Of a DNA stretch of 64,000 nucleotides, positions 144 through 27,534 are shown in pieces. Under the pieces are notes generated by a model. It worked only from the letters and a program-made list of their open reading frames with translations. It was not told the DNA's origin and ran no database searches. The stretch spans positions 141,346-205,345 of the forward strand of contig CAWCPZ010000003.1 of assembly GCA_963797635.1 (NCBI GenBank), written 5' to 3'. The position numbers were made by a program, and so were the translations under genes. Position 1 is the first letter of the stretch, and each line of letters opens with the position of its first letter. This DNA comes from an uncultured Actinomycetes bacterium. GTDB lineage: Bacteria > Actinomycetota > UBA4738 > HRBIN12.

Positions 144-170
144 CTGGGGAGCCTCCTTGGGTCTCGTGTG

Positions 171-2181: not shown

Positions 2182-2206
2182 CGCCCTTCGCTCCTTTCCA
2201 TGATCT

Positions 2207-4074: not shown

Positions 4075-4138
4075 CTTCGTGATACCTCGCTCGCTCGTGC
4101 GCCGGTCCCTCACTCCCTCGGCATGGATCCGGGAGAGT

Positions 4139-4161
4139 GAGCGGCCGGCGTACAGCCGCTC
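4139..4161 (-). terminator. Stem-loop downstream of flp (attenuator or mRNA stabiliser)
   Basis: GAGCGGC..GCCGCTC inverted repeat between the flp stop and tadE. Confidence 0.35.
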
Positions 4162-4180
4162 GTGCTGTAACGTTGCGGCC

Positions 4181-4397
4181 TTAGCTGCAGTCGGCTGGGT
4201 CGCCGACGCAGTCGCCGACCGAGCTGGAACTGCTCGCTGGAGCTCGTGCCGATGAAGGCAACTGCCGCGATGATGACCACCGCGATCAGGGCAACCATCA
4301 GCGCGTACTCCACCGCGGTCGCGCCACCTTCCTCAGCGGCCCGAGCCTTGAGCCCGTCCCACCAAGAGGTCGCGCTCGTGTAGAGACGCAGGAACAT
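4181..4397 (-). CDS. flp: Flp/Fap type IVb major pilin (one-base insertion near 4226)
   Basis: EEGGATAVEYALMVALIAVVIIAAVAFIG Flp motif. Removing one C gives ..SEQFSSVGDCVGDPADCS* with TAA at 4181-4183. RBS upstream. Confidence 0.92.
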
Positions 4398-4533
4398 GTG
4401 CTACACCCCCTTCCTCCGAAAGATCCGTCCTTGCTGGGAGGGTTTTCGACCTCTCAGCTGTGAAGCTTGAGTGCGGACACCACGGTAGATTCCGCGGTCT
4501 GACCAGGGAATTCCGTGTTTCCCGGAGGGTGGC

Positions 4534-4549
4534 TACGTAGTCCTACGTA
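4534..4549. promoter_or_regulatory. Perfect 7-2-7 inverted repeat TACGTAG-TC-CTACGTA, candidate NarL/LuxR-family site
   Basis: Seen directly in the divergent flp / glycosyltransferase intergenic region. Confidence 0.5.
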
Positions 4550-4565
4550 CGCACGTGCGTGGACT

Positions 4566-4592
4566 CCAGCGCCCGGGTTCGCCGGCCGATGG
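4566..4592 (+). promoter_or_regulatory. sigma28/WhiG-like promoter CCAG-N15-GCCGATGG
   Basis: GCCGAT box ends 9 nt before the ATG at 4602. Same architecture as four other sites in the window. Confidence 0.45.
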
Positions 4593-4601
4593 AATCGGGA
4601 G

Positions 4602-6128
4602 ATGGCCCACGCCCTGCGACCCGCCCCGACCCGGCACCGGACCCGGGTCACGAGCACCACGACGACCCGTCCTCGGCGGTGGCCGTCCCCGTGGCCCACG
4701 CTCGACCACGTCTGGGCGGCGCTCCCCGTCGTCATCCCGGTCGTGGTCTCCCTCGCGACCCGCATGGTGGCGATCGACCTCGCCTACCACGTACGCGCCG
4801 GCGAGCAGGTCCTGCGCGGGCGGGATCCCGAGGGCGACACGTGTACGTTCACGAGTGGCCGGAGCGGCCTGGCTGGACCAGCAGTGGCGTGCTCAGGCGC
4901 TGCTGGCATCGGCCCATCGCGTCGGAGGGTTCGCGCGATCGCCGCTGCTCCGAGCTGGGCTGATCGGGCTGACGTTCGCCCTGGTCTACCTGTCGTGCCG
5001 GGCCGAAGGGAGCGAGCCCGCGAGACCTCCTCGTTGCTGTCGCTCGGAGGGTTCGTCGTGTGCCTGCAGGCCCTGGCGATGCGACCGCAGCTCTTCGCGT
5101 TGCTTCCTGTTCGCCGCATCTTGTGGATCCTGGCGGCCCGCCACGCGCATCCCGGGCGGTGTGGGCCCTGCCGGTGCGGAGCGGTCGTGTGGGCCAACGT
5201 GCACGGAAGCTTCTTGCTCGCTCCCCTCTGCTGGTGCGGCCTGGCGCTGGTCGAAGACGTGATCGGAGGACTCCGGGATGGCGAAGGATGGCCCGGTCTC
5301 GCCGTGGGCTGACCGCGATCGCGACCTTGGTCAACCCCTTCGGCGTCGGCGTCTGGGGCTACGTCGTGGAGACCTGCGCACGAACCCGTCATCCGCGACA
5401 CGATCACCGAGTGGGCTCCGATGTCGGTCTCGACGTTCTCGGGGATCGCGTTCTTCCTCACGGCAGCCCTGATCGCGGATGGCTGGCTCGGCGCGAGCGC
5501 GTCCGTCCCGTGGGCCGCGTTGCTCTGGCTCGGAACCTTCTTCGCGCTCGCCTTGCCGGCCCGACGCGGCGTGATCTGGTGGGCGCTCGTGGCGCCGGTG
5601 GTGGTGGCCGGCCTCCTTGACCTTCGAAGCGCACCACGGACGATGCCCACCGGTTCGCGTTGGATGAACATGACGGTCATCGCGCTCCTCGGGGCGACGG
5701 TGCTTGCCTTCCTGCCGTGGTCGAGAGGCTTGCGTTCCACGGACCTGCTCGCAGAGGCGCCGGTGGGACTCACCGCGGCCGCCCGGGAGCAGCTGCCACC
5801 TGGGGCGAACGTGCTCACACCTCAGGCCTGGGGATCGTGGTTCGAGTTCGATGCCCCCGAGCAGCAGGTCTTCCTCGATGCACGGGTCGAGCTGCAGCCG
5901 CAAGCGGCCTGGGACGACTACAACGCGGTCCGAACCGCCCGAGGCGATTGGGGCGCCATCCTCGATCGATGGTCCGTCGATGCGGTCGTGGTGGATGCCC
6001 GCCCCGGCTGGGAGGAGCTGGAAGGTGCGCTGGCCGGGTCATCCGAGTGGTGTCTGGCCACGAGGGACGTGGCGGGGAGCCTGTTCATCCGAGACGACGC
6101 CGTCGACGGTCGCTGCATCGCATCATGA
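4602..6128 (+). CDS. Multi-TM membrane protein, putative GT-C-fold glycosyltransferase, several frameshifts
   Basis: Motifs DLAYHVRAG..D..TFT..WLDQQW, RPQLF, WANVHGSF, LVNPFG, ITEW and a soluble C-terminal domain VFLDARVEL..WDDY..ILDRWSVDAVV. Confidence 0.65.
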
Positions 6129-7385
6129 GTGGCACGGGCAGGTTCCGCCGGGGATCATCGTTGGCCCTCGCGGCCATGATGGGTCTCACGACGCTGACCA
6201 TGGTCCTCGGGGCTGGGCTCAAGTCCCCGTGCGCCGACCGATCGTGGGTCGAAGAACGACGCGGGGCCAGCGGCCAGTGCTACTCCGACATCGCCGATCT
6301 CCTTCGGACCGAGCAATTGGCCGACGGCCGCCTGCCGTATCTCGAACGATGTGACGCGGCGGCGAAGCCATGCGACGAGTATCCGCTCGTCTCGATGTAC
6401 GTGATGCGCTTGACCGCTTCATGGCCGGGAGGCGGCGACCCGTACACGACCTTCTTCTGGGTCAACGTGATACTGCTGCTGGCCTGCGCCCTCGTGATCA
6501 CGTGGTGCCTCGAACGGCTCGGCGCGGCGACCGCGTTGTTCGCGGCCGCTCCCACGCTGCTGATCTACGGGACGATGAACTGGGATCTCGTGCCGGTGGC
6601 GTTCGCAACGGTGGCGACGTTCGCATTCCTCCGGCGGCGCGAGGTCGCGAGCGGCATCCTTCTGGGCATCGGAGCGGCCGCCAAGCTCTACCCGGCGCTG
6701 TTGGTGTTGCCGTTCGCCGCCGATCGCTGGCGGACCGACGAACGCGGCCGAGGGGTGAAGCTGGTGCTCGCTGCCGGCCATCTCCTGGCTCGCCCTCAAC
6801 CTTCCGTTCGCCCTCGCGGCCCCGGAGGGCTGGTTCCATTTCGTCCGGTACCACTCGGAGCGACCGGCGGAGTACGACTCGCTCTGGCGGGTGGCGTGTG
6901 AGAACGGCCTGTGTCTGTCGACCGGCGCCATCAACGTCGCCTCGCTCATCCTGTTCGCGGTCGGGAGCGCGTTCGTGTGGCGCCTCAAGGAACGACGGGA
7001 CCCGGAGGTCCAGGCGTGGACATTCGGATTCGTCCTGGTCGCGATGTTCCTGTTGACGAACAAGGTGTGGTCGCCGCAGTACGCGTTGTGGCTGCTCCCG
7101 TGGTTCGCATTGGTGGCACCCTCGTTCAAGCCGTACCTCGCGTTCCAAGCGGCCGAGGTGCTGGTGTTCGTCGCGAGGTTCTCGTTCTTCCAGCATCTGG
7201 AAGGAGACGGCGGCCTGCCGTACGCAGCGCTTGAGATCGCGGTCGCTGCCCGAGCGTTGGCGCTGGTCTGGTGCCTCGCGGCGTGGGTGCGAGCTGACTA
7301 CTCCGTGGCGCCGACGGTGACGAGGCCGGACTGGGCCGCCAAGCGGATCGCCGCCAAGCGACTGCCGACCCCCAACTTGCCGTAG
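6125..7385 (+). CDS. Glycosyltransferase family 87 (DUF2029-like, polyprenol-phosphate-sugar dependent), frameshift ~6780
   Basis: KSPC..CYSDI..L..LPY..EYP, NWDL, GAAAKLYP, NKVWSPQYALWLLP motifs. ATGA overlap with the upstream gene. Confidence 0.85.
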
Positions 7386-13687: not shown

Positions 13688-14316
13688 CCGCCGTCCTCTG
13701 TTACGGGGACTCCAACACCTGGGGCTACGCCGCCTCGACCCAGCAGCGCCTGGGCCGATGGGAGCGGTGGCCCGGCGTCGTGCAACGCGCGCTCGGTGAG
13801 GACGTCCACGTGATCGAGGAGGCCCTCAACGGCCGCACGACGGCGTTCGAGGTGCCGTTCGATCCGGGGCGCAACGGGCTGGCGTACCTGCCGATCGCGC
13901 TGGAGAGCCACGCGCCCCTCGACGTCGTGGTGATCGCGCTGGGCGTGAACGACCTGTTCGTGCCGGGGGCGCTCTCGGTGCACCATGCGGCGCGAGGCGC
14001 GATCACCCTGGCCGAGGTGGTGGCGACGAGCGGCACCGGGCCCGGCGGCGAGGCGCCCGAGGTGCTGCTGCTGGTGCCGCCCCCGCTCGCTGCCCTCGGG
14101 GTGTGGGACGCCGAGAGCCCGCACGCGGAGCTGGAGTCCCGCGGGTTCGCCGACGCCTACCGCCTCGTGGCCGAAGACGCCCAGGTGCCGCTGCTCGACC
14201 TCGGGGCGTTCGTGACCTCGAGCCCGGTGGACGGCGTGCACTTCGAGGCCGAGGACCACCGCGTGATGGGCGAGGCGATCGCGGCGGCGCTGCGCGACCT
14301 GATGGAGCTGCGCTAG
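13684..14316 (+). CDS. SGNH/GDSL hydrolase (arylesterase-like)
   Basis: LCYGDSNTWG, EEALNGRTT, LGVND, DGVH; GTGA overlap with ppiA. Confidence 0.9.
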   Translation: MTAVLCYGDSNTWGYAASTQQRLGRWERWPGVVQRALGEDVHVIEEALNGRTTAFEVPFDPGRNGLAYLPIALESHAPLDVVVIALGVNDLFVPGALSVHHAARGAITLAEVVATSGTGPGGEAPEVLLLVPPPLAALGVWDAESPHAELESRGFADAYRLVAEDAQVPLLDLGAFVTSSPVDGVHFEAEDHRVMGEAIAAALRDLMELR

Positions 14317-14351
14317 CGCGCCGTCGTCGTTGGCCCGCGTCACGCGGCGAG

Positions 14352-14870
14352 TCACGCCGGCGGGTCGAGCCGGTACACGAGGTGTCCCCAGCCGGCGCGG
14401 ATCGTCCCGCGCCAGATCTCGAACCCCAGCTTCTCGGCCACCCGCCACGAGCCGATGTTCTCGGGGCGGATCAACGAGATGAGGAACGCCGGCTGCAGTT
14501 CGGCGAACGCCCAGTCGCGGCAGGCGGCACCGGCCTCGGTGGCGAACCCCCGCCCCTGCCGGTCGCGGCGGATGTGCCAGCCCAGCTCCAGCAGCGACTC
14601 GCCGTCGACGTCCTGGAACGAGGGCCCGCAGTCGCCGATCACCTCGCCGGTCGCGCGTTCCTCCACCGCGAGGAGCCCGGTGCCGTCCGCCACGTACCGC
14701 TCGAGCTGGCGGTCGATCCATCGGGCGGTGGCCGCGCGGTCGAACGGCGCCGGGTACCACCGCATCGACACGGGGTCACCCAGGACCGCCTGCAGGGCAT
14801 CGAGGTCGGAGCCGTCGGCCGCGTACGGGCGCAGGCGCAGACGCTCGGTCTCCAGGGTGGGCGGACTCAT
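14352..14870 (-). CDS. GNAT N-acetyltransferase (RimJ/RimL type)
   Basis: LETERLRLRP, ELGWHI..QGRGFATEA, ENIGSWRVAEKLGF. Confidence 0.9.
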   Translation of the reverse strand: MSPPTLETERLRLRPYAADGSDLDALQAVLGDPVSMRWYPAPFDRAATARWIDRQLERYVADGTGLLAVEERATGEVIGDCGPSFQDVDGESLLELGWHIRRDRQGRGFATEAGAACRDWAFAELQPAFLISLIRPENIGSWRVAEKLGFEIWRGTIRAGWGHLVYRLDPPA

Positions 14871-14974
14871 CCGACGGACGAGTCTAGATGCCGTGGTCAC
14901 GGCTCGCGGTTACCGCTCCCCCGGCGGTTCGGTCCATACTGCGGGCTCTCCACGCGCACGGAAGGATCCTCCTC

Positions 14975-15961
14975 ATGAGCGAACGACCGAACATCCTGGT
15001 GACCCGGCCGATCATGGACGGGGCGACGGCGACCCTGCGCGAACGCGCCGACGTCACGATCCACGAGAACGAGTTCGGCATCCCGCGGGACGAGCTCCTC
15101 GAGGTGATCGCCGGCCGCGACGCCATCATCACGATGCTCACCGAGCAGGTCGACGCCGAGTTCCTGGCCGCGGCCGGGCCGAACCTGACGATCGTCGCCA
15201 ACCACGCCGTGGGCTTCGACAACATCGACGTTGCCGCGTGCACCGCCGCCGGCGTGCTGGCCACCAACACGCCCGACGTGCTCACCGAGACCACCGCCGA
15301 CACCGCGTTCGCGCTGCTGATGGCGGCCGCGCGGCGCCTGGGCGAAGGGGAACGCTTCCTGCGCGCGGAGCGGCCCTGGATCTGGGGTCCGCTGATGATG
15401 CTGGGCCAGGACGTGCACCACAAGACGATCGGCATCGTGGGGTTCGGCCGGATCGGGCAGGCGGTGGCCCGGCGCGCGAAGGGCTTCGGGATGGACGTGA
15501 TCTACGCCGACGCGTTCCAGCTCCCCGCCGACGTCGAAGCCGAGACCGGCGCCCGGCGCGTGGAGCTCGAGGCGCTCCTGGAGCAGGCGGACTTCGTCTC
15601 GATCCACACGAACCTCACGGAGGAGACGCGGCATCTGTTCGACGCCGAAGCGTTCAAGCGCATGAAGCCGACCGCCGTGTTGGTCAACACCTCTCGCGGG
15701 CCTGTCGTCAACGAATCGGCGCTCGCCGATGCCCTGGAGTCCGGCGAGATCTTCGGCGCGGGGCTCGACGTGTTCGAGCGTGAGCCCCAGGTCGAACCCC
15801 GTCTGCTGGCGCTGGAGAACGTCGTGGTGATCCCGCACCTGGGCAGTGCCACGGTGGACACCCGGGATGCCATGGGCGCGCTGGCGGTGCAGAACGTGTT
15901 CGCGGCGCTGGACGGCACGCGGCCGCCTACACTGCTGAATCCCGACGCGTTCAAGGAGTGA
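14975..15961 (+). CDS. D-glycerate dehydrogenase / hydroxypyruvate-glyoxylate reductase (GyaR/GhrB type)
   Basis: NHAVGFDNID, NTPDVLTETTAD, GIVGFGRIG, NTSRGPVV, GLDVFEREP, PHLGSAT. Confidence 0.9.
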   Translation: MSERPNILVTRPIMDGATATLRERADVTIHENEFGIPRDELLEVIAGRDAIITMLTEQVDAEFLAAAGPNLTIVANHAVGFDNIDVAACTAAGVLATNTPDVLTETTADTAFALLMAAARRLGEGERFLRAERPWIWGPLMMLGQDVHHKTIGIVGFGRIGQAVARRAKGFGMDVIYADAFQLPADVEAETGARRVELEALLEQADFVSIHTNLTEETRHLFDAEAFKRMKPTAVLVNTSRGPVVNESALADALESGEIFGAGLDVFEREPQVEPRLLALENVVVIPHLGSATVDTRDAMGALAVQNVFAALDGTRPPTLLNPDAFKE

Positions 15962-15968
15962 CGACGGC

Positions 15969-18571
15969 GTGACCGCCCGCGCGGCCGCTTCGACGGGCCG
16001 CCGAGAGCGGCCCGCCTCCCCTGAGCTCCGGCGTGACGTTCGCCTGCTCACGACGATGCTCGGCGACGCGATCGCCGAGAGCGGCGGCCCCGCGCTGCTC
16101 GCCGAGGTGGAGGCGCTCCGCCTCGCGACGATCGCGTTCCGGGGCACGCCCACGGCGGCCCGCCGGGCCACGATCGTCTCCCTCGTGGATCAGCTCGATG
16201 TGTCACGCGCCGAAGACGTGATCCGCGCGTTCACCTGCTACTTCCAGCTGGTGAACCTGGCCGAGGAGCGCCAGCGTCTGCGCGTCCTGGCGCGTCGCGC
16301 CCGTTCGGGCAAGCCGGTGAAGGACTCGATCGACGCCCTGGACGTGGATGCGTCCGCGTTCGAGGATCTGCGCATCACGCCGGTGCTGACCGCCCACCCC
16401 ACCGAGGCCAAGCGTCGCGCCGTGGTCGAGCACCTGTGGCGGATCGGCGCCCTGCTCGAACAGCTCGAGGACCTGCCCACGGGAGCCGCCGATGAGCAGG
16501 AGGTCCATCGCCGGCTGCGCGAGGAGATCGCCGGGCTGTGGCGTACGGAGCCGATCCGCCGGCATCGTCCCGAACCGCTCGATGAGGTGCGCGCGACGCT
16601 CGCCCTGTTCGACCAGACGATCTTCGTGACCCTGCCGGCGATCTATCGCGCGGTGGACCGCACCCTCGACCCCGAACGCTGTGGAGCGCGGCCGCCCTCG
16701 TTCGCGCCGTTCCTCCGATGGGGCACCTGGGTGGGGGGCGATCGTGACGGCAACCCCGCCGTCACCGCCGAGGTCACGCGGGCGGCGATGGCGATCCAGA
16801 CCGACCATGCGCTCCGGGGGATGGAGGCGGCCGCTCGGCGGATCGCCCGGACCCTGTCGGTGTCCGAGCGCGACGTGCCGCCGAGCCGCGCACTGCGCCG
16901 GGCGTTGGATCGGGACGCCGGCGAGCTTCCCGAGGTCGCCACCGAACTCGGACGGACGCTGTCCGACGCACCCCACCGACGGAAGCTGGGCCTGGCGGCC
17001 CATCGGCTCGCGGCGACCCGGCTGGGCATCCGCGGGGCCTACGCCGGCCCGTCCGAGTTCCTCACGGACATCGAGACGCTGCAACGCTCCCTCGAGGCCG
17101 GTGGCGCTCCGAGGCTGGCGTGGGGCGAGCTGCAACACCTGCGGTGGCAGGTGGAGACGTTCGGGTTCCATCTGGCGTCGATGGAGGTGCGGCAGCATTC
17201 GAGCGTGCTGGCGACCGCCCGCGAGGAGGTCGCCGGTGCGCGGTCATCCCGGCCCTCCCCGCAGACGCGCGAGGTGCTTGGCGACCTTCCGGGCGATCGC
17301 GGACATCCAGCAGCGCCTGGGACCGGAGGCGTGCGAGCGCGTCGTGGTGAGCTTCACGAAGTCGGCGGCGGACCTGGCCGGAGTGCTGGAGCTCGCGCGC
17401 GTCGCGGTGCCGGAGGGGCCCCCCGATGTCGTGCCCGTGCCGCTGCTCGAGTCGCGCCACGAACTCGCGAACGCCACCACGATCCTGGACGAGTGGACCG
17501 CGATGCGCGAGACCAGGGCGCTGCTTCGCCGCCGCGGCAACGAGCTCGAGGTGATGGTGGGCTACTCCGATTCCGCGAAGGAGGTCGGCATGCTCGCCGC
17601 CAACCTCGAGCTGTACGCGGCGCAGCGGTCGATGGCGGCGTGGGCGCGCGAGCACGGACTGCGGCTCACGATCTTCCACGGCCGCGGCGGCGCCTTGGGC
17701 CGCGGCGGCGGACCGGCGAGCCAGGCGATCACCGCCGAGCCACCGGGTTCGATGGACGGCCGGTTCAAGGTGACCGAGCAGGGCGAGGTGGCGTTCGCCC
17801 GCTACGGGAACCCCGCGCTGGCGCGGCGGCACCTGGAACAGCTCACGAACGCCGTGGTGCGCGCGAGCCGAGGAACCCACCGGCGCCCACGATCCCGCCG
17901 ACGGGTTCGCCGAGGAGATCGCCGTGCTGTCGGCGGCCTCGCGCGAGCGGTACGAGTCGCTCGTGCACGCCGACGGGTTCGTCGAGTTCTTCCGGCGCGT
18001 CACCCCGATCGCGCAGATCGGCACGCTGCCGATCGCGTCGCGGCCCGTCTCGCGAGGCCTGGACGCCGGCGCCGTGCTCGAGGACCTGCGCGCGATCCCA
18101 TGGGTCTTCGCCTGGGGTCAGAGCCGCGTGAACCTCACCGGGTGGTACGGGCTCGGCGCCGGACTCGCGGCGGTGGCCGGCCGGCGCGGCGGGCTCGGGC
18201 GCCTCCGCGCGATGGCGCGTGCGTGGCCCTTCTTCGCCACGCTGCTCGAGAACGCCGAGCTCTCGCTCGCGAAGGCCGACCCGGCGATCGCGGATCTCTA
18301 CCTGGCCCGCGGCGACCGCCCCGACCTCAGCGCCACGATCCGCGAGGAGATGCAGCGGACCACCGAGCTCGTCCTGTCCGTGACCGGGCACGACCACGTG
18401 CTGGACGCCAAACCCGACCTGCAGCGCGCCATCGAGTTCCGGAATCCGTACGTCGACGCCCTGTCGTTCCTGCAGGTGCGGTTCCTGGGCGAACGGCCCG
18501 GCGTGCGCACGGAGCGCCTGGTCCAGGCCACGATCAGCGGGGTCGCGGCCGGCCTGCAGAACACCGGCTGA
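15969..18571 (+). CDS. ppc: Phosphoenolpyruvate carboxylase, frameshifts ~17280 and ~17880
   Basis: VLTAHPTE, WVGGDRDGNP, MVGYSDSAKE, FHGRGGALGRGGGP, TEQGE, LRAIPWVFAW, C-terminal GLQNTG. Confidence 0.95.
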
Positions 18572-18710
18572 ACGGCGGGTCCCTGACCGGCGGTGAGGCG
18601 GCCGGGCTATCGCCGGATCCGGCACCTATGCCATACTCCGGTCTTCCTTTGAACGCCCGTTCAAACTTCGGGCTCTGCCGTTCGCGGGGCCTCGTGAGGG
18701 AGGGACAGAC

Positions 18711-19856
18711 ATGAGCGAGACGCTCGTCACCAGCATCCCGGCGCTGCAGCCGGGCGAACGGCTCCTGTGCGGCCCCGGGCCGTCCAACGTGAACCCCAAG
18801 GTGCTCGAAGCGATGGGCAACCCGATGAACGGGCACCTCGACCCCGACTTCTGGGACATCCTGGTCGACCTCACCGCCGGGCTCCAGGCGCTCTGGCAGC
18901 GGGCCGACGGACTGTCGCTGTGCTTCAGCGCCTCCGGGACCTCCGGCATGGAAGCCGGCCTCGCGAACCTCACCGAACCCGGCGAGAAGGTCATCGTGAT
19001 CCACGCCGGGTTCTTCGGGGCCAGGATCGCCGAGATGGCCAAGCGCGCCGGCACCGAGCTCGTCGAACTCACCGCGCCGCTCGGCCAGATCGTGCCGCTG
19101 GATCAGGTCGAGGAGGCCCTGCGCGCCAACCCCGACACGAGGCTGGTGGCGGTGGTGCACGCCGAGACCTCGACCGGTGTTCGGTACCCGGTTGCGGAGC
19201 TGGGTTCGCTCATGCGGGAAGCGGCGCCCGATGCGCTGCTGATGGTCGACGCCGTGACCTCGCTGGGCGGCGAGCAGGTCTCCCCCACCGAGTGGAACAT
19301 CGACTACGCCTACTCGTGCTCGCAGAAGTCGCTGGGCTGCCCACCCGGGCTGAGCCCGTTCACGGTGTCGCCGCGTGCGCTCGAACGGGCCCGCAACCGC
19401 AAGGCGCCCGTCTCGTTCAGCTTCGACATCGACCTGCTGGAGAAGTACTGGGTCGAGCGCCCGATGACCTACCACCACACGATGCCGATCCTGCAGTACT
19501 ACGCGCTGTACGAGGGCATCCGGCTCGCCCTCGAGGAGGGCCTGCAGAACCGGTGGGCTCGCCACGAGGACGCCGGCCGCTACTTCCAGCAGCAGATGCG
19601 CGACCGTGGTTACACGTTCCTGTCCGATCCGGACCATCAGCTGTGGGAATTGAGCGCGATCGACGTGCCCGAGGGCGTGGACGGCAAGGACATCCAGTCG
19701 ACGATCCTGCGCACGTTCAACATCGAGGTGGGCGGCGGCCTCGGCCCCACCGCGCCCCCGATCTGGCGGGTGGGCCTGATGGGCGTGAACGCCAACCGTG
19801 AGACCGCCGACCGGGTGCTGGCGGCCTTCGACGAGGTCCTGCCCCGCTCAGCGTAG
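18711..19856 (+). CDS. Serine/alanine-glyoxylate aminotransferase (class V PLP)
   Basis: LLCGPGPSN, SGTSGMEA, VHAETSTG, VDAVTSLGG, SQK (PLP Lys), YHHT, WRVGLMG. Confidence 0.9.
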   Translation: MSETLVTSIPALQPGERLLCGPGPSNVNPKVLEAMGNPMNGHLDPDFWDILVDLTAGLQALWQRADGLSLCFSASGTSGMEAGLANLTEPGEKVIVIHAGFFGARIAEMAKRAGTELVELTAPLGQIVPLDQVEEALRANPDTRLVAVVHAETSTGVRYPVAELGSLMREAAPDALLMVDAVTSLGGEQVSPTEWNIDYAYSCSQKSLGCPPGLSPFTVSPRALERARNRKAPVSFSFDIDLLEKYWVERPMTYHHTMPILQYYALYEGIRLALEEGLQNRWARHEDAGRYFQQQMRDRGYTFLSDPDHQLWELSAIDVPEGVDGKDIQSTILRTFNIEVGGGLGPTAPPIWRVGLMGVNANRETADRVLAAFDEVLPRSA

Positions 19857-19864
19857 GTGCCCTC

Positions 19865-20836
19865 ATGACACGCAAGGACCGGCTCCACCGAAGCGAACTC
19901 GCCGTTCCCGGCACGAACGTGCGCGCCATGGAGAAGGCCGCCACGCTCGATGCCGACGTCGTGTTCCTCGACCTCGAGGACGCCGTGGCGCCCGACGACA
20001 AGGAAGCGGCGCGCGGCAACATCATCGAGGCGCTCGGCGTCAACGACTGGTCGCGAACGGCCGTCAGCGTGCGCATCAACGGGCTCGACACCCACTGGTG
20101 CTACCGCGACGTCGTCGACGTCGTGGAGGCGCGCGGCCAGGTGCTCGACACCGTGCTGGTGCCCAAGGTGGGCTCGCCCTCCGACGTCGAGTTCGTGGCG
20201 ACGCTGCTGGACCAGATCGAGCAACGCAACGGCTGGGAGCCCGGCCGCATCGGCATCCACATCCTGATCGAGACCGCCGCGGGGATGGCCAACGTCGAGG
20301 CGATCAGCCGGGCTCGGCCCGACCGGCTCGAGGCCATGGTGTTCGGCGTCGCCGACTACGCGGCTTCGGTCCGTGCGCGCACGACGAACATCGGCGGGGC
20401 CAACCCCGGCTACTCCGTGCTCACCGATCCGTTGCCGCAGACGGGCGCGCGCGAGATCCACTGGGGCGACCAGTGGCACTTCGGGATCAGCCGCATGGTG
20501 GCGGCGTGCCGCGCCGAAGGCCTGCGCCCGATCGACGGTCCGTTCGGCGACTTCAACGACCCGGACGGGTACCGCAGCGCGGCGAGGCGCGCCGCGGCGC
20601 TGGGCTGCGAGGGCAAATGGGCGATCCACCCGTCGCAGGTCGAGTTGGCGAACGAGGTCTTCTCCCCTGGCGAGGACGAGGTCGACCGCGCGCGCCGGAT
20701 CCTCCAGGCCATGGAGGACGCAGCGAAGGAGGGCAAGGGCGCCGTCTCGCTCGACGGACGGCTGATCGACGCCGCCTCGATCCGGATGGCGGAGAACCTG
20801 ATCCGCCAGGTGGAGCAGATCACCAGCAGGTCGTGA
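19865..20836 (+). CDS. mcl: L-malyl-CoA lyase (HpcH/CitE family)
   Basis: RLHRSELAVPG, FGVADYAAS.RAR...IGG.N..YSVLTD, GLRPIDGPFGDF.DPDGY, EGKWAIHPSQ, GAVSLDGRLID.ASIRMAE. From memory, these stretches closely follow methylotroph MclA. Confidence 0.88.
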   Translation: MTRKDRLHRSELAVPGTNVRAMEKAATLDADVVFLDLEDAVAPDDKEAARGNIIEALGVNDWSRTAVSVRINGLDTHWCYRDVVDVVEARGQVLDTVLVPKVGSPSDVEFVATLLDQIEQRNGWEPGRIGIHILIETAAGMANVEAISRARPDRLEAMVFGVADYAASVRARTTNIGGANPGYSVLTDPLPQTGAREIHWGDQWHFGISRMVAACRAEGLRPIDGPFGDFNDPDGYRSAARRAAALGCEGKWAIHPSQVELANEVFSPGEDEVDRARRILQAMEDAAKEGKGAVSLDGRLIDAASIRMAENLIRQVEQITSRS

Positions 20837-20904
20837 ACGACCGGCACGACCGCATCCGGTCGCGCCTGAAGGAAGCCCGCAGCCGGGCGCCGAAGGAGCA
20901 GCAG

Positions 20905-22080
20905 ATGGATATCCACGAGTACCAGGCCAAGCAGCTGCTTCGCAGCTACCGGGTGACCACGCCTCGAGGCGAGGTGGTCTACACGTCGAAGGCGGCCGCT
21001 CGCGTCGCCGAGGAGCTCGGCGGCCAGCGATGGGTGGTGAAGGCCCAGATCCATGCGGGTGGGCGCGGCAAGGCCGGTGGCGTGAAGCTGGGCAACTCCC
21101 CCGACAAGATCGCCGAGATCGCCGATCAGATGCTGGGCTCCACGTTGGTCACCGCACAGACCGGTCCCGAGGGCCAGCGGGTCAGCCGCGTGCTGGTCGA
21201 ACGTGCCTCGCGGATCGAGCGGGAGTTCTACCTCTCGCTGGTGGTGGACCGTGATTCGCAGCGGATCGTGGTGATCGCCAGCGCTGAGGGCGGCGTCGAC
21301 ATCGAGGAGGTCGCCGCGTCCGACCCCGGCGCGATCCACACCGAGTACGTGGACCCCGGGGTCGGATTGCTGGACTTCCAGTGCCGCAAGGTGGCGACCG
21401 CGATCGGGCTGGGCAACCGCACCGCCTCGTTCACGCGGCTGCTCAAGCGCATGTACCGGCTCTTCCGCGACCTGGACTGCCTGATGCTCGAGGTGAACCC
21501 CTTCATCGAGACCGAGGACGGCGACCTGGTCGCCCTGGACGCGAAGATGAGCTTCGACGACAACGCGTTGTTCCGCCAGGGCGACGTGGTGGAGCTGCGC
21601 GACTTCGAGGAGGAAGACCCCAAGGAGGTCGAGGCCACCGGCCACGGGCTCAACTACATCGCGCTCGACGGCTCGGTGGGCTGCATCGTGAACGGCGCCG
21701 GCCTGGCGATGGGGACGATGGACGCGATCGTGCACCACGGCGGGCGCCCGGCGAACTTCCTCGACGTAGGGGGCGGTGCCAGTCCCGAGAAGATCGCGAA
21801 CGCCTTCCGGATCGTGCTGCAGGACCCGAACGTGCAGGCGATCCTGGTGAACATCTTCGCGGGCATCAACCGGTGCGATTGGATCGCGCAGGGCGTGGTG
21901 CAGGCGACGCGCGATCAGGCGATCGGCGTCCCGGTGATCGTCCGGTTGGCCGGCACCAACGTGGAGGAAGGCCGGAAGATCCTGGACGAGAGTGGCCTGG
22001 CCCTGATCCAGGCCGACGACCTCGACGACGCCGCGGCCAAGGCCGTGCACGCGGTGAGCGAGCAAGGGGTGCCGGCATGA
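20905..22080 (+). CDS. mtkA: Malate-CoA ligase (malate thiokinase) beta subunit
   Basis: MDIHEYQAK, KAQIHAGGRGKAGG, and the Mtk-type NIFAGINRCDWIA (SucC has NIFGGI.RCD). Adjacent to mcl. Confidence 0.85.
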   Translation: MDIHEYQAKQLLRSYRVTTPRGEVVYTSKAAARVAEELGGQRWVVKAQIHAGGRGKAGGVKLGNSPDKIAEIADQMLGSTLVTAQTGPEGQRVSRVLVERASRIEREFYLSLVVDRDSQRIVVIASAEGGVDIEEVAASDPGAIHTEYVDPGVGLLDFQCRKVATAIGLGNRTASFTRLLKRMYRLFRDLDCLMLEVNPFIETEDGDLVALDAKMSFDDNALFRQGDVVELRDFEEEDPKEVEATGHGLNYIALDGSVGCIVNGAGLAMGTMDAIVHHGGRPANFLDVGGGASPEKIANAFRIVLQDPNVQAILVNIFAGINRCDWIAQGVVQATRDQAIGVPVIVRLAGTNVEEGRKILDESGLALIQADDLDDAAAKAVHAVSEQGVPA

Positions 22081-22976
22081 GCGTGTTCGTGGACAAGGAC
22101 TCGAAGGTCATCATCCAGGGCTTCACCGGACAGCACGCCACGTTCCACGCCGAAGAGGCGATGTCGTTCGGGACGAAGGTCGTGGGAGGCGTCACCCCCG
22201 GCAAGGGGGGGACCACCCACCTGGGGTTGCCGGTGTTCAACAGCGTGGCCGAGGCGGTCGAGGAGACCGGCGCCGATGTGTCGGGCATCTTCGTGCCGCC
22301 GGCGCTCGCGACGGACTCCCTGCTGGAAGCGGCCGAGGCCGGCGTGGGGGTGGCGGTGATCATCGCCGACGGGGTCCCCGTCCAGGACATGGTCCGCACC
22401 AAGCGCTACCTCGCGGGGCGTTCGACGCGCATCATCGGACCCAACTCCCCCGGCATCATCACGCCTGGCGCGTGCAAGGTGGGCATCATGCCGAGCCACA
22501 TCTACCTGCCGGGGCGCGTGGGCGTGGTGTCGCGAAGCGGCACGCTCAACTACGAGGCCGTCTCGCAGATGACCGCCCGCGGCCTGGGGCAATCGACCTG
22601 CGTGGGCATCGGCGGCGACCCCGTGAACGGCACCGACTTCAAGACCGTCCTGCAGGCCTTCGAGAACGACGACGAGACCGACGTGGTCGTGATGATCGGC
22701 GAGATCGGCGGGCAGCAGGAGGTCGAGGCGGCCGCGTGGGCGGCGCAGTACATGTCGAAGCCGCTCGTGGCCTTCATCGCCGGAGTCTCGGCGCCGCGCG
22801 GCCGGCGCATGGGACACGCGGGCGCGGTGATCGCGGGCGAGTCCGACACCGCGAACGCGAAGCTGGACGCGATCGAGGGCCACGGCCACCGGGTGGTGCG
22901 CAACCCGGCCGACATCGGCGAGACCGTGTTCCGCGCCGTCAAGGAGGCCGGCGACCGGGTGGGCGCCGCGTCGTAG
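22077..22976 (+). CDS. mtkB: Malate-CoA ligase alpha subunit (SucD family)
   Basis: QGFTG, GGVTPGKGG, SRSGTLNYEA, GIGGDP, RMGHAGA phospho-His. ATGA overlap with mtkA. Confidence 0.85.
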   Translation: MSVFVDKDSKVIIQGFTGQHATFHAEEAMSFGTKVVGGVTPGKGGTTHLGLPVFNSVAEAVEETGADVSGIFVPPALATDSLLEAAEAGVGVAVIIADGVPVQDMVRTKRYLAGRSTRIIGPNSPGIITPGACKVGIMPSHIYLPGRVGVVSRSGTLNYEAVSQMTARGLGQSTCVGIGGDPVNGTDFKTVLQAFENDDETDVVVMIGEIGGQQEVEAAAWAAQYMSKPLVAFIAGVSAPRGRRMGHAGAVIAGESDTANAKLDAIEGHGHRVVRNPADIGETVFRAVKEAGDRVGAAS

Positions 22977-23095
22977 CGGCTCAGGCTCGAGCAGCGCCCG
23001 CTCCACCATCACGCGATCCGATGCTCGCGGAGCGCGCAACGGCGGGCGCATCCGAAGCATCGAACGGTCGACGCTCACGGAAAGGGGCGAAGACC

Positions 23096-23922
23096 ATGGC
23101 CGCACGACTCACCGTCGATCCCACCGTTGGCCCGCCCGACGCTGCGCGACCGGTTCGAACGCGACGGGTTCGTCCGGATCACGGGCGCGCTCACGGACGC
23201 CGAGGTGACACGGTACCGGCGTGCCGTGGATCGGGTGGCGGCCGAACACGGCTCCGAGGGCACGATGCTGCATCGGTTGGCGTTCCTCGGCGACGATCCG
23301 TCATTCGTCAAGCTGCTTGACCATCGTGCCACGTTGCCGTTGGTGCGGCAGGTGCTGGGCGACAACATCCACTGCTACCACTGCCACCTGGACGTCCACC
23401 CTGGTGCCGAGACGCCCCGGGATGTGTGGCTGTGGCATCAGGACGGCGGCGTGGTGAACCGGGACCTGGAGACCTCACCCCGGCCGCGGCTGTCGGTCAA
23501 GGTGGCGTTCTTCCTGTCCGACGTGTCGATCCCGGGCCGCGGAAACCTGGTGGTACTCCCCGGCTCACAACGGACCGACCGGATGGAGCCACCCGCCGAC
23601 AGATCGAACGACCTGCCGGGCGCTCAGCCGATCCTGGCGGCGGCGGGCGACGCCGTGATGTTCGATCGCCGCCTCTGGCACATGCGCAGCCCCAACACGA
23701 GCGACGTCACCCGGAGGGTGCTGTTCCTGGCGTACACCTACCGGTGGATCCGGCCGCGCGACGACATGCCGATACCCACGGACGGTGGTGGCGGCGGCAA
23801 CGACCGTCCAGCGGCAGCTCCTGGGGATCCCCGACGCCGCCGTCGACCACTGGTCCCTGGGCGAGCCGCCCGCGCTCGCCGATCGGCCTCACGCCACTCC
23901 TTCGTCGGGACCGGCGCGGTAG
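23096..23922 (+). CDS. Phytanoyl-CoA dioxygenase (PhyH) family Fe(II)/2-oxoglutarate oxygenase, frameshifts near both ends
   Basis: FERDGFV, WHQD (HxD), LPGS, AGDAVMFDRRLWH..SPN.S...RR. Confidence 0.85.
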
Positions 23923-25007
23923 CGGATGCCGCTCGGCCGGTGCCACGTGACGTCGCCGTCGTCGGTGCGCGCGATCGACCATCCGTGCTCGTGCACCAGC
24001 TTGTGATGGAACGAGCAGACGAGGATGAGGTTGTCGAGATCGGTGGTGCCGCCGCGCGACCACCATTCGATGTGATGGGCCTGCGTGAACCGCCGGGCGT
24101 CGCACCCGGGGAACCGGCAGGCGTCGTCGCGATGCCGGAGCTGGCGCATCATCCAGGCCGACGGTTCGCGGGCGAGTCGACCGACCCCCGCCACCGTGCC
24201 GTCGGGTCGTTCGAGCACCATCTGGACGCGCGCGTTGCACAGCAGCCGCTGCGCCGTGGAGCCGCCGATCACCGGCCCGTCCTCGATCAAGGCGTTGGCG
24301 TCGACACCCTCGAGCACGTCGATGTCGGCATGGACCACGATCGTGGCTCGGTCCTGATCCTCGTCACCGGCGAGGCGGGCGGAGCACAGCGCGACGAGCG
24401 CGTCGGCCCGGCGGCTGCCCACGAACCGGTCGGACTCCTCCCCGGGCATGACGGGGATCTGGTCGCCGAGCCGATCGAGCGCCTTCGCCACCACGGCCCC
24501 CTGCGCCGACGGGAGTTCGCCGTCGATCACGAACCGCTGGCCCTCGTCGGCGACCTTCCACTGCAACCAGCGTGTGCGTTCGGCTTCGGCGGCCTGCTCG
24601 TCGCGATGCGCCACCTGCAGGTCGCCCGCTCGCCTGATCGCGCCCGAGGAGACCCCTTGGGCCCAACGCACGAGCGCGTCTTCATCGTCGAAGGAGGCGA
24701 ACCGGGTGAGCTCGACGACCTTGTCGATGCCGAGATCGCCACGCGCGAGCGCGTGAGCGGTGGCGGGCAACGTGGGGAGCGCCCGGCCGGCGCCGAGCAG
24801 CCGGTCGGCCTTCCAGCGGGAGACGTCCAGCGCCATCGACGTCCACTGAGCCATGTCGTGGGCGCCGTCTTCGACCCAGGCCTGCCGGGTCTCGAGCTGG
24901 GCGAGGACCTCCAGCAGTTCGCGCTGACGTTCGGCGATCTCGCGGTGCAGGGTCTGGACGCGGCCGATGAGGTCCTGCGTGTCGGTGAGCAGTGGATCCA
25001 CGTGCAT
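23889..25007 (-). CDS. DUF222 + HNH endonuclease (REP13E12-like protein)
   Basis: RRADALV, RLLC, RDDACRFPGC..AHHIEWW..GGTTDLDNLILVCSFHH..VH. Confidence 0.92.
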   Translation of the reverse strand: MHVDPLLTDTQDLIGRVQTLHREIAERQRELLEVLAQLETRQAWVEDGAHDMAQWTSMALDVSRWKADRLLGAGRALPTLPATAHALARGDLGIDKVVELTRFASFDDEDALVRWAQGVSSGAIRRAGDLQVAHRDEQAAEAERTRWLQWKVADEGQRFVIDGELPSAQGAVVAKALDRLGDQIPVMPGEESDRFVGSRRADALVALCSARLAGDEDQDRATIVVHADIDVLEGVDANALIEDGPVIGGSTAQRLLCNARVQMVLERPDGTVAGVGRLAREPSAWMMRQLRHRDDACRFPGCDARRFTQAHHIEWWSRGGTTDLDNLILVCSFHHKLVHEHGWSIARTDDGDVTWHRPSGIRYRAGPDEGVA

Positions 25008-25043
25008 CCGTTCCGGGGGAGGACGGGTGGTGGACGACGCTGC

Positions 25044-25073
25044 ATGCTACTCGAACATACGTTCGGATGTCAA
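25044..25073 (-). promoter_or_regulatory. Promoter TTGACA-N18-TAGCAT with a LexA SOS box CGAAC-ATAC-GTTCG (25052-25065) in the spacer
   Basis: Matches the actinobacterial/firmicute SOS box CGAAC-N4-GTTCG. Confidence 0.85.
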
Positions 25074-25108
25074 GCCCCACGGCGCCGGACAGGTAACGTG
25101 GCTCTCCC

Positions 25109-26234
25109 ATGGCGACACCGGCGACCTCGATCGAGGTGCAGGGGCGGGAGATCCGCGTCACGAACCCCGACAAGGTGTACTTCCCCGACGCCGAGGGCGG
25201 CCCGATCACGAAGCTCGAGGTGGTGGAGTACTGGGCCGCGGTGGCCGAAGCCGCGCTTCACGGCTGCCGTGACCGCCCGGAGATCCTGCACCGCTTCCCC
25301 GCGGGGGTGGCCGACGACGGCGAGGGCTCCTTCTATCAGAAGCGCATCCCCAAGGGGTCGCCCGAGTGGGTGCAGACCGCCACCGTGATGTTCCCGAGCG
25401 GACGCACCGCCGCGATGCCGGTGATGGCCGACGAAGCGGCGCTGGTCTGGGCCGCGACGCTGGGCTGCCTGGAATGCAATCCCTGGCCGGTACGTGCCGA
25501 CGACGTCGCTCACCCCGATGAGTTACGGGTGGACCTCGACCCCACGCCCGGTGTGCCGTGGGACGACGTGCGGAGGGTGGCGCTGATGTCGCGCGACGTC
25601 CTGGCCGAACACGGACTCACCGGGTTCCCGAAGACCAGCGGCAAACGGGGCCTGCACATCAACGCCCGGGTGGAGCGAGGGAACGGCTTCACGGCGACGC
25701 GGCGCGCGGCGCTGGCCTTCGCGCGCGAGGTGGAGCGGCGCATGCCGGGCATCGCCACCACCGCGTGGTGGAAGGAAGAACGTCAGGGCGTGTTCCTCGA
25801 CTACAACCAGAACGCGCGCGACCGCACCGTGGCGAGTGCGTATTCGGTCCGGCCCATGCCCGACGCTCGCGTGTCGACACCGCTGGCTTGGGACGAGGTG
25901 GCCGACGTCGATCCCTCGCGCTTCACGGTGCGGACCGTGCCCGGCCGGTTGCGCGAGATCGGCGATCCGGGTGCCGGGATCGATCGAGCACGTGGGCAGC
26001 CTCGACGCATTGCTGGCGCTCGCAGAGCAGGACGCCGCCGGCGGCCTGGGCGATGCGCCGTGGCCACCGCATTTCCCGAAGGGCGACGACGAACCGGTGC
26101 GGGTGAACCCCTCCCGCGCGAAGAAGATCGCCGAATGGGAGGAGATGAAGCGCCAAGGTCTGGGCGGCGATCGAGGCCAGGGAAGCCAGGGCCGTGGCCA
26201 GGGCCGTCGCCGGAAAGAGCCGGGTTCGGCCTAG
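25109..26234 (+). CDS. Stand-alone LigD-type polymerase (primase-polymerase, Prim-PolC-like), frameshift ~25990
   Basis: TNPDKVYFP, FYQKR, PDELRVDLDP, PKTSGKRGLH, FLDYNQNARDRTVASAYSVR, WPPHFPK. Confidence 0.92.
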
Positions 26235-27313
26235 CCGTCCGTCGGTTCGGGCCACGCGGGCGGTTCGGCCCCCGGGATCTGGTCGAAGGTGCAGCTCGCG
26301 GGCTCGCGGTCGTCGCGCCAGCGGACGAAGCTCGCGGCGTGGCGGAACCGCCCGTACTGCACCCGGTCGATCGTGACCTCGCAGACCAGCACCGGTTGCA
26401 GGGTGATCCACGCGGTGTCCTTGCCGGCGCTCCACCGGCTCTGCCCGCCCGGCGCGCGACCACCCTCGAAGCTGTCGCCGCCTTCGAGCGGTCGCAACTG
26501 TTCGAGGATGTCCCGTCGCTCCTTCGCCTTGAACGAGGACGTGTGCCCGACGTAGTGCAGCGTGCCGTCGCCGTCGTACAGGCCGAGCAACAGCGCGCCG
26601 ATCCCGTCGCCGGTCTTCGACAGGCGGTAGCCGCCCACGACGCAGTCGAGCGTGGAGCGATGCTTCACCTTGATCCAACCGCGCTCGCCCGACAGGTACG
26701 GCTGCTCGGCACGTTTGGCGATGATGCCGTCCTGGCCGATGCCCGCGTCGTCGGCGAACCAGCCGCGCGCCACCTCCGGATCGTCGGTCCAGGGAGCGGC
26801 CAACACCGTGGGCCCGGTGGGCACGTCGTCCAGGGAACCGGGCGCGGCCTCCCATCCCATCGCCGAGGCCAGCGTCGCGAGTCGCTCGCGCCGTTCGGCG
26901 AGCGGGACCTCGGCGAGCCCTTCGTCCCCGAGCCACAGCAGGTCGAACACGATCAAGGTGGCGGGGATCTCGCCGGCGAGCTTGCGCACCCGCGACTCGG
27001 CAGGGTGCAGCCGCAGCTGCAGTTCGTCGAAGTCCATCCGGCCCGGCGCCACCCGCACGATCTCGGCGTCGGCCACGAACGGTCCGTGGCTCGCATCGCG
27101 TTCCAGCAGCTCGAGCAACTCCGGGAAGTACCGTCCCAGGGGTCTGCCGTCGCGGCTCGCGAGGCGCGCGGTGCCGTCGGTGTCGATCGCGACGATCGTC
27201 CGGAACCCGTCCCACTTGGGCTCGTAGGTCCAGCCATCACCGATGGGCATGTCCGGTTGGACCTTGGCGAGCATCGGCGCCGGAAGATCGCCGGCGATCG
27301 TGCGCTTCGGCAT
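26231..27313 (-). CDS. ligC: ATP-dependent DNA ligase LigC
   Basis: PMLAK, YEPKWDGFR, RLHPAESRV, WIKVKH, LLLGLYD, PGGQSRWS, RFRH. Confidence 0.92.
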   Translation of the reverse strand: MPKRTIAGDLPAPMLAKVQPDMPIGDGWTYEPKWDGFRTIVAIDTDGTARLASRDGRPLGRYFPELLELLERDASHGPFVADAEIVRVAPGRMDFDELQLRLHPAESRVRKLAGEIPATLIVFDLLWLGDEGLAEVPLAERRERLATLASAMGWEAAPGSLDDVPTGPTVLAAPWTDDPEVARGWFADDAGIGQDGIIAKRAEQPYLSGERGWIKVKHRSTLDCVVGGYRLSKTGDGIGALLLGLYDGDGTLHYVGHTSSFKAKERRDILEQLRPLEGGDSFEGGRAPGGQSRWSAGKDTAWITLQPVLVCEVTIDRVQYGRFRHAASFVRWRDDREPASCTFDQIPGAEPPAWPEPTDG

Positions 27314-27534
27314 GGGCCGACCCTATCGCGCGCCGGACCACGACCTCATGCGGGCAGCCGCGCCGAGCCCAGGGTTGCCCCCACGCGCACCACGCCGGTC
27401 GTCTTCGCGCACGAGATGGCGCCCATGTCACCATCCGGTGACGATTGGCGATCATGCGGCCAGTGGGGGATGCGTGCGACGGCGGAACGTGCAACGGTGG
27501 GAGCGCTCCACCCCCGCGAACGAAGGAGCTCCCC

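Follow-up and report, generated by a model that had tools for sequence, protein, structure and literature searches.

A candidate serine-cycle gene cluster, hpr-ppc-sga-mcl-mtkA-mtkB, in the genome of an uncultured actinobacterium

Methylorubrum extorquens carries a serine-cycle gene cluster of the proteobacterial methylotroph type, and characterised actinobacterial methylotrophs mainly use the ribulose monophosphate (RuMP) route for one-carbon (C1) assimilation. Here we describe a block of six co-oriented genes on the plus strand at positions 14975-22976 of a 64,000-nucleotide (nt) stretch of DNA (the window; G000:C3:141346-205345, where G000 is the genome and C3 the contig) from an uncultured member of the Actinomycetota. 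The genome comprises 2.995 Mb in 13 contigs, with ~69% G+C and an estimated completeness of 92.7%. We consider it rather probable, judging from gene content, that the block serves a working serine cycle of the icl+ type, assimilating tetrahydrofolate (THF)-bound C1 units from methylated amines or formate, plus CO2 via phosphoenolpyruvate (PEP) carboxylase. In the parts of the literature with which we compared this genome (PMC13199381, PMC10875860, PMC8879981, PMC13688921, PMC6908837, PMC8262859, PMC11237726, PMC12478193), the serine cycle figures chiefly as a trait of proteobacteria and is predicted from genomes for a few other phyla, e.g. Binatota; the open full texts searched report no serine-cycle cluster with malate thiokinase (Mtk) and malyl-CoA lyase (Mcl) in Actinomycetota, their supplements (e.g. 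PMC8262859 Fig. S2, Text S1), subscription journals and the older enzymology of Gram-positive methylotrophs lying outside this scope. The positions and spacing of the six genes given in the preliminary description (gaps of 7, 139, 8, 68 and -4 nt) were all reproduced, and NCBIfam and PDB sequence searches concur with the gene names it had proposed:

hpr, 14975-15961, plus strand: D-2-hydroxyacid dehydrogenase of the glyoxylate/hydroxypyruvate reductase type, 328 residues
ppc, 15969-18571, plus strand: PEP carboxylase, here in three frames (~15969-17275, 17277-17867, 17869-18571), C-terminus ...GLQNTG
sga-like, 18711-19856, plus strand: class V (AGXT-type) glyoxylate aminotransferase, 381 residues
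mcl, 19865-20836, plus strand: malyl-CoA/beta-methylmalyl-CoA lyase, 323 residues
mtkA, 20905-22080, plus strand: malate thiokinase (malate-CoA ligase) beta-subunit-like protein, 391 residues
mtkB, 22077-22976, plus strand: malate thiokinase alpha-subunit-like protein, 299 residues; its start overlaps mtkA by 4 nt

The window cluster is orthologous and syntenic to clusters of Methyloversatilis, Methylibium, Aminobacter and Paracoccus methylarcula, all of which we take to be serine-cycle methylotrophs, and of Gemmatimonadota. The proteobacterial clusters (Methyloversatilis L078/L093, Methylibium L056, Aminobacter L070/L077, P. methylarcula L038) hold the same enzyme set, with 56-60% identity to the window in MtkA and 60-65% in Mcl, and with the motif NIFAGINRCDW in common. 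The window is nevertheless unlike them in several respects: 1) it belongs to the Actinomycetota; 2) its aminotransferase is of the AGXT type (24-36% identity to theirs) and its Hpr is nearer to archaeal glyoxylate reductases; 3) its genome encodes a GlxK-type glycerate kinase, the MOFRL-type glycerate 2-kinase being found in 0 of 41 genomes (our set of relatives, which includes G000 and of which 25 belong to its genus), and no pyrroloquinoline quinone (PQQ) methanol dehydrogenase was seen in it; 4) its MtkA falls below the curated cut-off; and 5) no mtdA, fch, glyA or regulator was seen adjacent to the block. The Gemmatimonadota clusters (L029, L031-L033, L050-L052, L088) run sga-mcl-mtkA-mtkB-hpr-ppc and resemble the window in having all six genes co-oriented and an hpr of the same subtype (44-48% identity), but hpr-ppc come first in the window, MtkA (57-60% identical) branches apart, and sga is 29-36% identical. 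In Ruegeria loci the order mtkA-mtkB-hpr-ppc is found with mcl nearby.

The subunits MtkA and MtkB share fold and two-subunit architecture with succinyl-CoA synthetase (SucCD) and pass the cut-offs of the corresponding models (MtkA with 548 bits on the SucC model, cut-off 370; MtkB with 425 bits on the SucD model NF004230, cut-off 336). The best solved structure for MtkA is a succinyl-CoA synthetase beta chain (1jkj_B, 404 bits), presumably the E. coli enzyme, and no Mtk-specific alpha-subunit model is among the NCBIfam matches of MtkB. A separate canonical sucCD, for which the preliminary description proposed a search, does exist elsewhere in the genome, on contig C7 (sucC at G000:C7:98051-99196, sucD from 99193), which makes MtkAB a second copy. 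MtkA is 43.6% identical to the SucC of G000 and MtkB 53.5% identical to its SucD; MtkA is 56-64% identical to the MtkA of Thiodiazotropha, Gemmatimonadota, Methyloversatilis, Methylibium, Aminobacter, P. methylarcula, Ruegeria and others, and MtkB 49-65% identical to the MtkB adjoining MtkA in other phyla. On the model for the malate--CoA ligase beta subunit, NF010647, the window gene scores 573 bits vs. 371 for the SucC of G000, and all of the 41 relatives stay below its cut-off. The motif NIFAGINRCDW, named in the preliminary description as the Mtk signature, is indeed present in the window MtkA and recurs in 76 of the 79 MtkA-like proteins from the loci compared, with two more reading NVFAGINRCDW; SucC of G000 has NIFGGITRCDL at the same site, so that A/N/W stand where SucC has G/T/L. 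In a tree of 87 rows, 78 MtkA and 9 actinobacterial SucC sequences are split by a branch with 100% support (this and the placements below come from quick IQ-TREE searches with support by the Shimodaira-Hasegawa-like approximate likelihood ratio test, SH-aLRT, only, and with actinobacterial SucC as the only outgroup). Linkage points the same way, since mcl ends 68 nt upstream of mtkA and stands beside mtkAB in 12/12 actinobacterial loci and in 52/68 others. Judged by these features, the ligase is a true Mtk-type paralogue, distinct from the canonical SucCD.

As for the other cluster enzymes, the best PDB match of Mcl is 5ugr ('Malyl-CoA lyase/beta-methylmalyl-CoA lyase', 431 bits), followed by 4l9y (311 bits), vs. 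at most 116 bits for citrate-lyase-like chains; it lies under every NCBIfam equivalog cut-off, the only Mcl model matched being haloarchaeal (139 bits, cut-off 500), is 55-65% identical to the mcl adjoining mtkAB in other phyla, and is the sole gene of the HpcH_HpaI family found in G000, G022, G008 and G004. Mcl is thus closest to characterised malyl-CoA lyases and not to citrate lyase beta/CitE. Hpr is likewise below all equivalog cut-offs (best NCBIfam model the glyoxylate reductase NF009714, 357 bits vs. 455; GhrB 270 vs. 492), with archaeal glyoxylate reductases as its top PDB matches (6bii, 323 bits) and D-glycerate dehydrogenase 1gdh at 211 bits; homologues of 40-48% identity come after mtkB in Gemmatimonadota and alphaproteobacterial clusters, and we place it, by similarity, in the glyoxylate/hydroxypyruvate reductase group. 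The aminotransferase matches alanine-glyoxylate aminotransferase 1vjo best (336 bits), then AGXT/serine-pyruvate entries such as 1h0c (~248 bits), with the serine-glyoxylate entry 6pk1 at 127 bits; it reaches no NCBIfam equivalog (best BhcA, 190 bits, cut-off 650) and shares 24-36% identity with the sga-like genes in proteobacterial and Gemmatimonadota clusters. On our reading, the Sga step would be filled by a non-orthologous relative of the AGXT type, with serine as its putative donor.

In the cycle that we postulate, for which we infer substrate specificities and direction of flux, serine hydroxymethyltransferase (SHMT), encoded elsewhere in the genome, would join methylene-THF and glycine to give serine, and the AGXT-type aminotransferase would pass the amino group of serine to glyoxylate, either directly or via a pyruvate/alanine shuttle, yielding hydroxypyruvate and glycine. 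Hpr would reduce hydroxypyruvate to glycerate, which the GlxK-type kinase, also encoded elsewhere, and glycolytic enzymes would convert to PEP; Ppc would then add CO2 to form oxaloacetate, and malate dehydrogenase (Mdh), again encoded elsewhere, would yield malate. MtkAB would spend ATP to turn malate into malyl-CoA, and Mcl would cleave malyl-CoA to acetyl-CoA and glyoxylate, closing the cycle. Glyoxylate drained to biosynthesis may be restored from acetyl-CoA by isocitrate lyase (ICL), as in the icl+ variant, with a Ccr-based route as the alternative. The C1 units themselves would reach the cycle bound to THF, as methyl or methylene groups freed from glycine-betaine-type compounds, dimethylglycine and sarcosine, with formate entering via Fhs; methanol is probably not the source.

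Glycerate kinase, SHMT and Mdh had been said to be missing from the window, and none is among the 20 open reading frames (ORFs) at 6759-34900 when these are searched with Pfam; all three are encoded on other contigs of G000, and the genome also has a means of glyoxylate regeneration (ICL and Ccr). The partner enzymes are as follows:

SHMT, C11:661880-663013: one copy in G000
GlxK-type glycerate kinase, C11:78531-79622: TIGR00045, 404 bits vs. a cut-off of 168
Mdh, C7:113290-113757: present in G000
ICL, in G000: 775 bits vs. a cut-off of 562
Ccr, C7:156790-157972: 337 + 169 bits in two frames, cut-off 379
Fhs, C11:112382-114044: present in G000

ICL is also found in 21 of the 24 other genomes of the genus, and Ccr in 34 of the 41 relatives. 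In G000 the neighbourhoods of ccr, glxK and icl showed no pathway partners.

On the side of C1 supply, for which the preliminary description proposed a search, fhs and a set of MttB, corrinoid-protein and sarcosine genes were found in G000, and the methanol-oxidation families searched were not. THF-linked C1 enzymes are unusually numerous in the genome (16 matches to the GCV_T domain in 3.0 Mb), and an island outside the window (G000:C10:500000-519900, locus L118) combines genes of cobalamin-dependent methyl transfer with those of sarcosine oxidation:

L118, C10:500000-519900: MttB-family methyltransferase, 743 bits (253 bits on the trimethylamine equivalog, cut-off 525)
L118: corrinoid protein, best match MtgC, 208 bits vs. 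a cut-off of 370
L118: methyl-THF:corrinoid methyltransferase domain, 345 bits vs. a cut-off of 259, on one protein with a RACo activase
L118: MTHFR-like gene, directly downstream
L118: aldehyde dehydrogenase, SoxG, SoxA, SoxD, SoxB, IclR regulator and CysK-like gene

In Ruegeria pomeroyi grown on glycine betaine, MtgBCD, MetF2, RamA and serine-cycle proteins are raised, according to PMC12478193, and MtgBCD/MetF2/RamA of that organism follow the same logic as the MttB, MtgC-like, methyl-THF methyltransferase-RACo and MTHFR-like genes of G000. The two differ in that methyltransferase and activase are fused in G000, where the substrate of MttB is putative and its coupling to the six-gene cluster presumptive. 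The fusion, Pterin_bind-Fer2-RACo of 991 residues, is unusual in itself. No competing C1 route was found, the RuMP hexulose-phosphate synthase (Hps) being found in 0/41 genomes and Fae having no match in G000. A further observation concerns the neighbourhood of fhs, where fhs and two GcvT-like genes are accompanied by an FTCD_C protein and a short ORF with a formiminotransferase domain (C11:110880-111913; L117 14881-15914). This FTCD_C protein matches the methenyl-THF cyclohydrolase FchA best (160 bits, cut-off 275) and might be either a cyclohydrolase like Fch or a cyclodeaminase of histidine catabolism.

The cluster is shared by many, though not all, close relatives. An orthologue of the aminotransferase (at least 54% identity) occurs in 21 of the 41 genomes, namely 19 of the 25 from the genus and both genomes from a second genus of the order, and mostly lies on the same contig as an mtkA or ppc match, a few kb off. 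Six genomes of the genus (G002, G005, G015, G018, G021 and G023) yielded neither this orthologue nor a full-length Mtk-type match, such negatives in incomplete genomes meaning 'not found' and not 'absent'; G021, which is 94% complete in 2 contigs, also gave no ppc match and no HpcH_HpaI-family gene. From this patchy presence we conclude that the cluster is an accessory unit. We also observed that G021 has ICL, yet neither malate synthase nor Mcl was found in it. The preliminary description also proposed a test of synteny in related metagenome-assembled genomes (MAGs). Among 12 actinobacterial MtkA loci, from MAGs whose titles read uncultured Actinomycetes or Actinomycetota and from one further MAG of a hot spring, mcl and mtkAB are present in all 12, the aminotransferase in 10, hpr in 8, ppc in 7 and all six genes in 6. 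The 68 loci of other phyla show mcl in 52, hpr in 51, an sga-like gene in 34, ppc in 27 and all six in 14, with the complete set in 8 of the 11 Gemmatimonadota loci. The flanks of the relatives' clusters vary, and no conserved additional C1 gene or regulator was seen in them. Unpublished genomes enter these counts as follows: G020 is cluster-positive (sga and ppc matches) and is also in the fhs, ccr and MttB counts; G029 and G037 are cluster-negative and ccr-positive; and G366 is one of the three genomes of family f66 discussed below (locus L120). No conclusion hangs on any single one of them.

Among 401 evenly drawn Actinomycetota genomes, the window's family showed Mtk-like matches in 10 of its 22 genomes, to which G000 adds one more, and in 7 of the 15 genera sampled. 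Such matches also occurred in three genomes of one other family, f66 (63-66% G+C, 1.6-2.7 Mb), where they pass the NF010647 cut-off with 637-664 bits. Four intermediate scores of 456-480 bits in f24, f51 and f63 may be ordinary SucC because E. coli, B. subtilis and Caulobacter match at the same threshold. The f66 loci (L129, L130 and L120 in G410, G284 and G366, respectively) read sga-mcl-mtkAB and share with the window an AGXT-type aminotransferase (40-41% identity), Mcl (55-58%), MtkAB (56-57%) and the same motif; they differ in that their MtkA passes the curated cut-off and branches apart from the window lineage, and in that hpr and ppc are not found within ~9 kb. In the tree, the f66 MtkA falls within a Gemmatimonadota/Pseudomonadota clade, and the window's lineage (12 rows, 99% support) lies outside it, next to a long Thiodiazotropha branch, a tentative sister position that involves long branches. 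These placements point to two separate Mtk histories in the phylum; Mtk would then have entered, or persisted in, the Actinomycetota at least twice.

Several observations weigh against a working serine cycle, and we gather them here. 1) MtkA, with 572.4 bits on NF010647, does not reach the cut-off of 604. 2) By the scores and identities given above, the aminotransferase is not of the Sga/SGAT subtype. 3) Some relatives (L020, L022, L024, L025 and L028) carry the cluster without ppc or hpr, and G001, 92% complete, has Mtk and no ppc match. 4) The PQQ alcohol dehydrogenase was above cut-off in 0/41 genomes, iron-containing alcohol dehydrogenase (Fe-ADH) was not found in G000 (one weak match in G022), and the lack of a Fae match belongs here too; classical methanol or tetrahydromethanopterin-linked methylotrophy is therefore unsupported. 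More broadly, no methanol or methylamine dehydrogenase of the families searched, which on this side were PQQ alcohol dehydrogenase and Fe-ADH, was found in G000. 5) Genes of C1 supply do not track the cluster, as Fhs and MttB are each present in 24/24 of the other genomes of the genus and the cluster-less G021 has 12 GCV_T matches, ICL and Ccr; since these genes are genus-wide, G021 included, we regard the cluster as an add-on to an existing methyl-group catabolism. 6) A point in favour of the cycle has to be qualified: rhizosphere metatranscriptome contigs that are 96-99% identical cover hpr, ppc, sga, mcl and mtkB (pieces including 15734-16276, 17051-18054 and 18080-18818), but an RNA library may contain DNA, and we take them as a hint, not proof, that relatives of the cluster are expressed. 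7) Malate synthase (PF01274) was found in 0/5 genomes of the genus (G000, G022, G008, G004, G021), and Mcl is the only CitE-like lyase in the genomes searched, two results that fit a role in C2 assimilation equally well.

Such a role is the alternative that survives best, although we hold it to be rather unlikely. Here Mcl would join glyoxylate and acetyl-CoA, and MtkAB would run in reverse (malyl-CoA + ADP + Pi -> malate + ATP), the two together replacing the missing malate synthase; glyoxylate would come from ICL, the Ccr-based route or glycolate, the aminotransferase and Hpr would take up surplus glyoxylate, and Ppc would be anaplerotic only. The malate synthase result speaks for it, as ICL is widespread in the genus, and so do the frequency of Ccr and the singleness of mcl within its family in the four genomes named above. 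[quoted passage not shown] However, G021 retains both ICL and Ccr although no Mcl, Mtk or malate synthase was found in it, so neither of the two depends on the cluster; and a C2 role leaves unaccounted for both the co-operonic hpr, ppc and glyoxylate aminotransferase and the recurrence of the six-gene set in genera of serine-cycle methylotrophs. Mcl used for C2 assimilation is, in addition, known with a thioesterase or CoA-transferase as its partner and not with Mtk. The serine-cycle and C2 roles could also coexist. A third direction, from glycine through glyoxylate to malate with the aminotransferase reversed and glycine derived from betaine breakdown, was set aside, as AGXT-type reactions lie strongly towards glycine.

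Very unlikely, in our estimation, is a carbon-conserving route of the malyl-CoA/glycerate or photorespiration-like type, in which a C3 compound would yield two acetyl-CoA via Ppc, Mdh, Mtk and Mcl while glyoxylate would return through glycine, serine and glycerate, with no net assimilation of external C1 units. Its two branches (Ppc-Mdh-Mtk-Mcl and glycine-serine-hydroxypyruvate-glycerate) are fully encoded and GCV_T-family genes are many, but no feature separates it from a serine cycle (glyoxylate carboligase and tartronate-semialdehyde reductase were not searched), and the abundance of THF-linked demethylases together with Fhs indicates an external C1 supply. We know of no natural precedent for it. 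The preliminary description had offered both possibilities; its serine cycle is supported by the separate sucCD, the glycerate kinase and SHMT, and further by the syntenic orthologues, the THF-linked C1 supply and the glyoxylate-regeneration enzyme, and its malyl-CoA/glycerate route found no specific support.

The state of ppc bears on whether a serine cycle could operate at all. It had been described as a single gene, and family and position hold; one open frame does not, since its 2603 nt are not divisible by 3, and the PEP carboxylase profile is covered in three frames (profile positions 1-414, 457-663 and 665-898), this being the sole such match in G000. Aligned to four relatives (L016-L019), the window ppc has an extra base at ~17276 and a net gain of one at ~17868. 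In L017 and L018 ppc is intact, with open frames of 876 and 877 codons from stop to stop, and the PEP carboxylases of the intact relatives score 719-785 bits, likewise below the cut-off of 815. Logan contigs aligned on 14900-23100 from three DNA metagenomes (sediment, rhizosphere and soil, from three studies) and one rhizosphere metatranscriptome allowed the two sites to be compared in other assemblies. At 17276 one letter is omitted in contigs of all four runs, the depth with the omission being 11.9/11.9 in X2, 21/21 in X3, 4.68/4.68 in X15 and 2.88/5.88 in X1, and a letter at 17868 or 17871 is likewise omitted in all four; the X3 contig over 17019-17357 differs by only two other letters and one gap, the gap being at 17276. 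Third-position GC is high enough for a coding call in each ppc piece in its own frame. The same kind of split is seen in other conserved genes of G000, namely fhs (C11:112382-114044), ccr (C7:156790-157972) and a GcvT-like gene (C10:504051-504889), with orthologues that are whole in relatives; relatives assembled in few contigs also show many single-frame splits. Because contigs from metagenomes and the metatranscriptome lack both bases, the ppc of relatives is intact and other genes of G000 are similarly split, the two extra bases most probably arose as errors of the assembly. The population, at least, carries an intact gene, and the G000 assembly seems to contain scattered one-base insertion or deletion (indel) errors, so that apparent pseudogenes in it need caution. 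Accordingly, a decaying cluster, in which the assembly's only ppc would be a pseudogene with two frame changes and the pathway inoperative, is the least probable reading of all, given that all four runs omit the extra letters, that L017 and L018 have the gene intact and fhs, ccr and the GcvT-like gene are split alike, and that each piece keeps its coding-level third-position GC. As a candidate in its own right, a ppc pseudogene was largely rejected, on the intact relatives, the alignment to L016-L019 and the contigs without the extra bases.

Should the cluster work as a serine cycle in the manner we propose, C1 units from methylated amines and formate would be built into soil actinobacterial biomass and not respired. 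We would go further only tentatively, with a wider reading that we regard as possible and still doubtful: that a whole uncultured soil and rhizosphere family of Actinomycetota runs its own complete serine cycle, with a deep Mtk lineage that was not recently borrowed from proteobacteria (a point that would follow from its position outside the Gemmatimonadota/Pseudomonadota radiation), with an aminotransferase of the AGXT type doing the work of Sga, and with its C1 units drawn from quaternary and methylated amines by cobalamin-dependent demethylation and not from the oxidation of methanol. If this were true, it would be the first gene-level case of serine-cycle C1 assimilation in Actinomycetota, and the methyl groups of plant osmolytes would be kept as actinobacterial biomass in soil. 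The cluster is kept in about three quarters of one soil genus (19/25), with close relatives in rhizosphere RNA libraries, and its divergent Mtk and Mcl set and AGXT-type aminotransferase are on offer for engineered C1 pathways.

The genes around the block are unrelated to it by Pfam, with a GNAT acetyltransferase gene on the minus strand upstream and genes for a PhyH-family dioxygenase, a DUF222-HNH endonuclease, a LigD primase-polymerase and a ligase downstream; this sets the six genes apart as a block of their own. A search of the window for RNA elements or riboswitches yielded 0 Rfam matches at gathering thresholds, and sigma-70-type promoters and intrinsic terminators numbered 0 each in 14300-23400, a result that is weakly informative in DNA of 70% G+C. 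The PhyH-family ORF (23127-25388, plus strand) adjoins mtkB and has no stop before 25388, crossing the DUF222-HNH gene antisense; its Pfam match stops near residue 198 and its homologue in L016 spans two frames, and the read-through may reflect another indel or a lost stop. At the start of the window (1-6300), the frame plot of third-position GC is fragmented into many short segments, with shifting frames and low-signal stretches, where there may be more indels, short genes or non-coding DNA. Further downstream of the block, at 25109-27322, the LigD primase-polymerase gene (plus strand) and the ATP-dependent DNA ligase gene (minus strand) converge, and together they look like a split pair for non-homologous end-joining repair.

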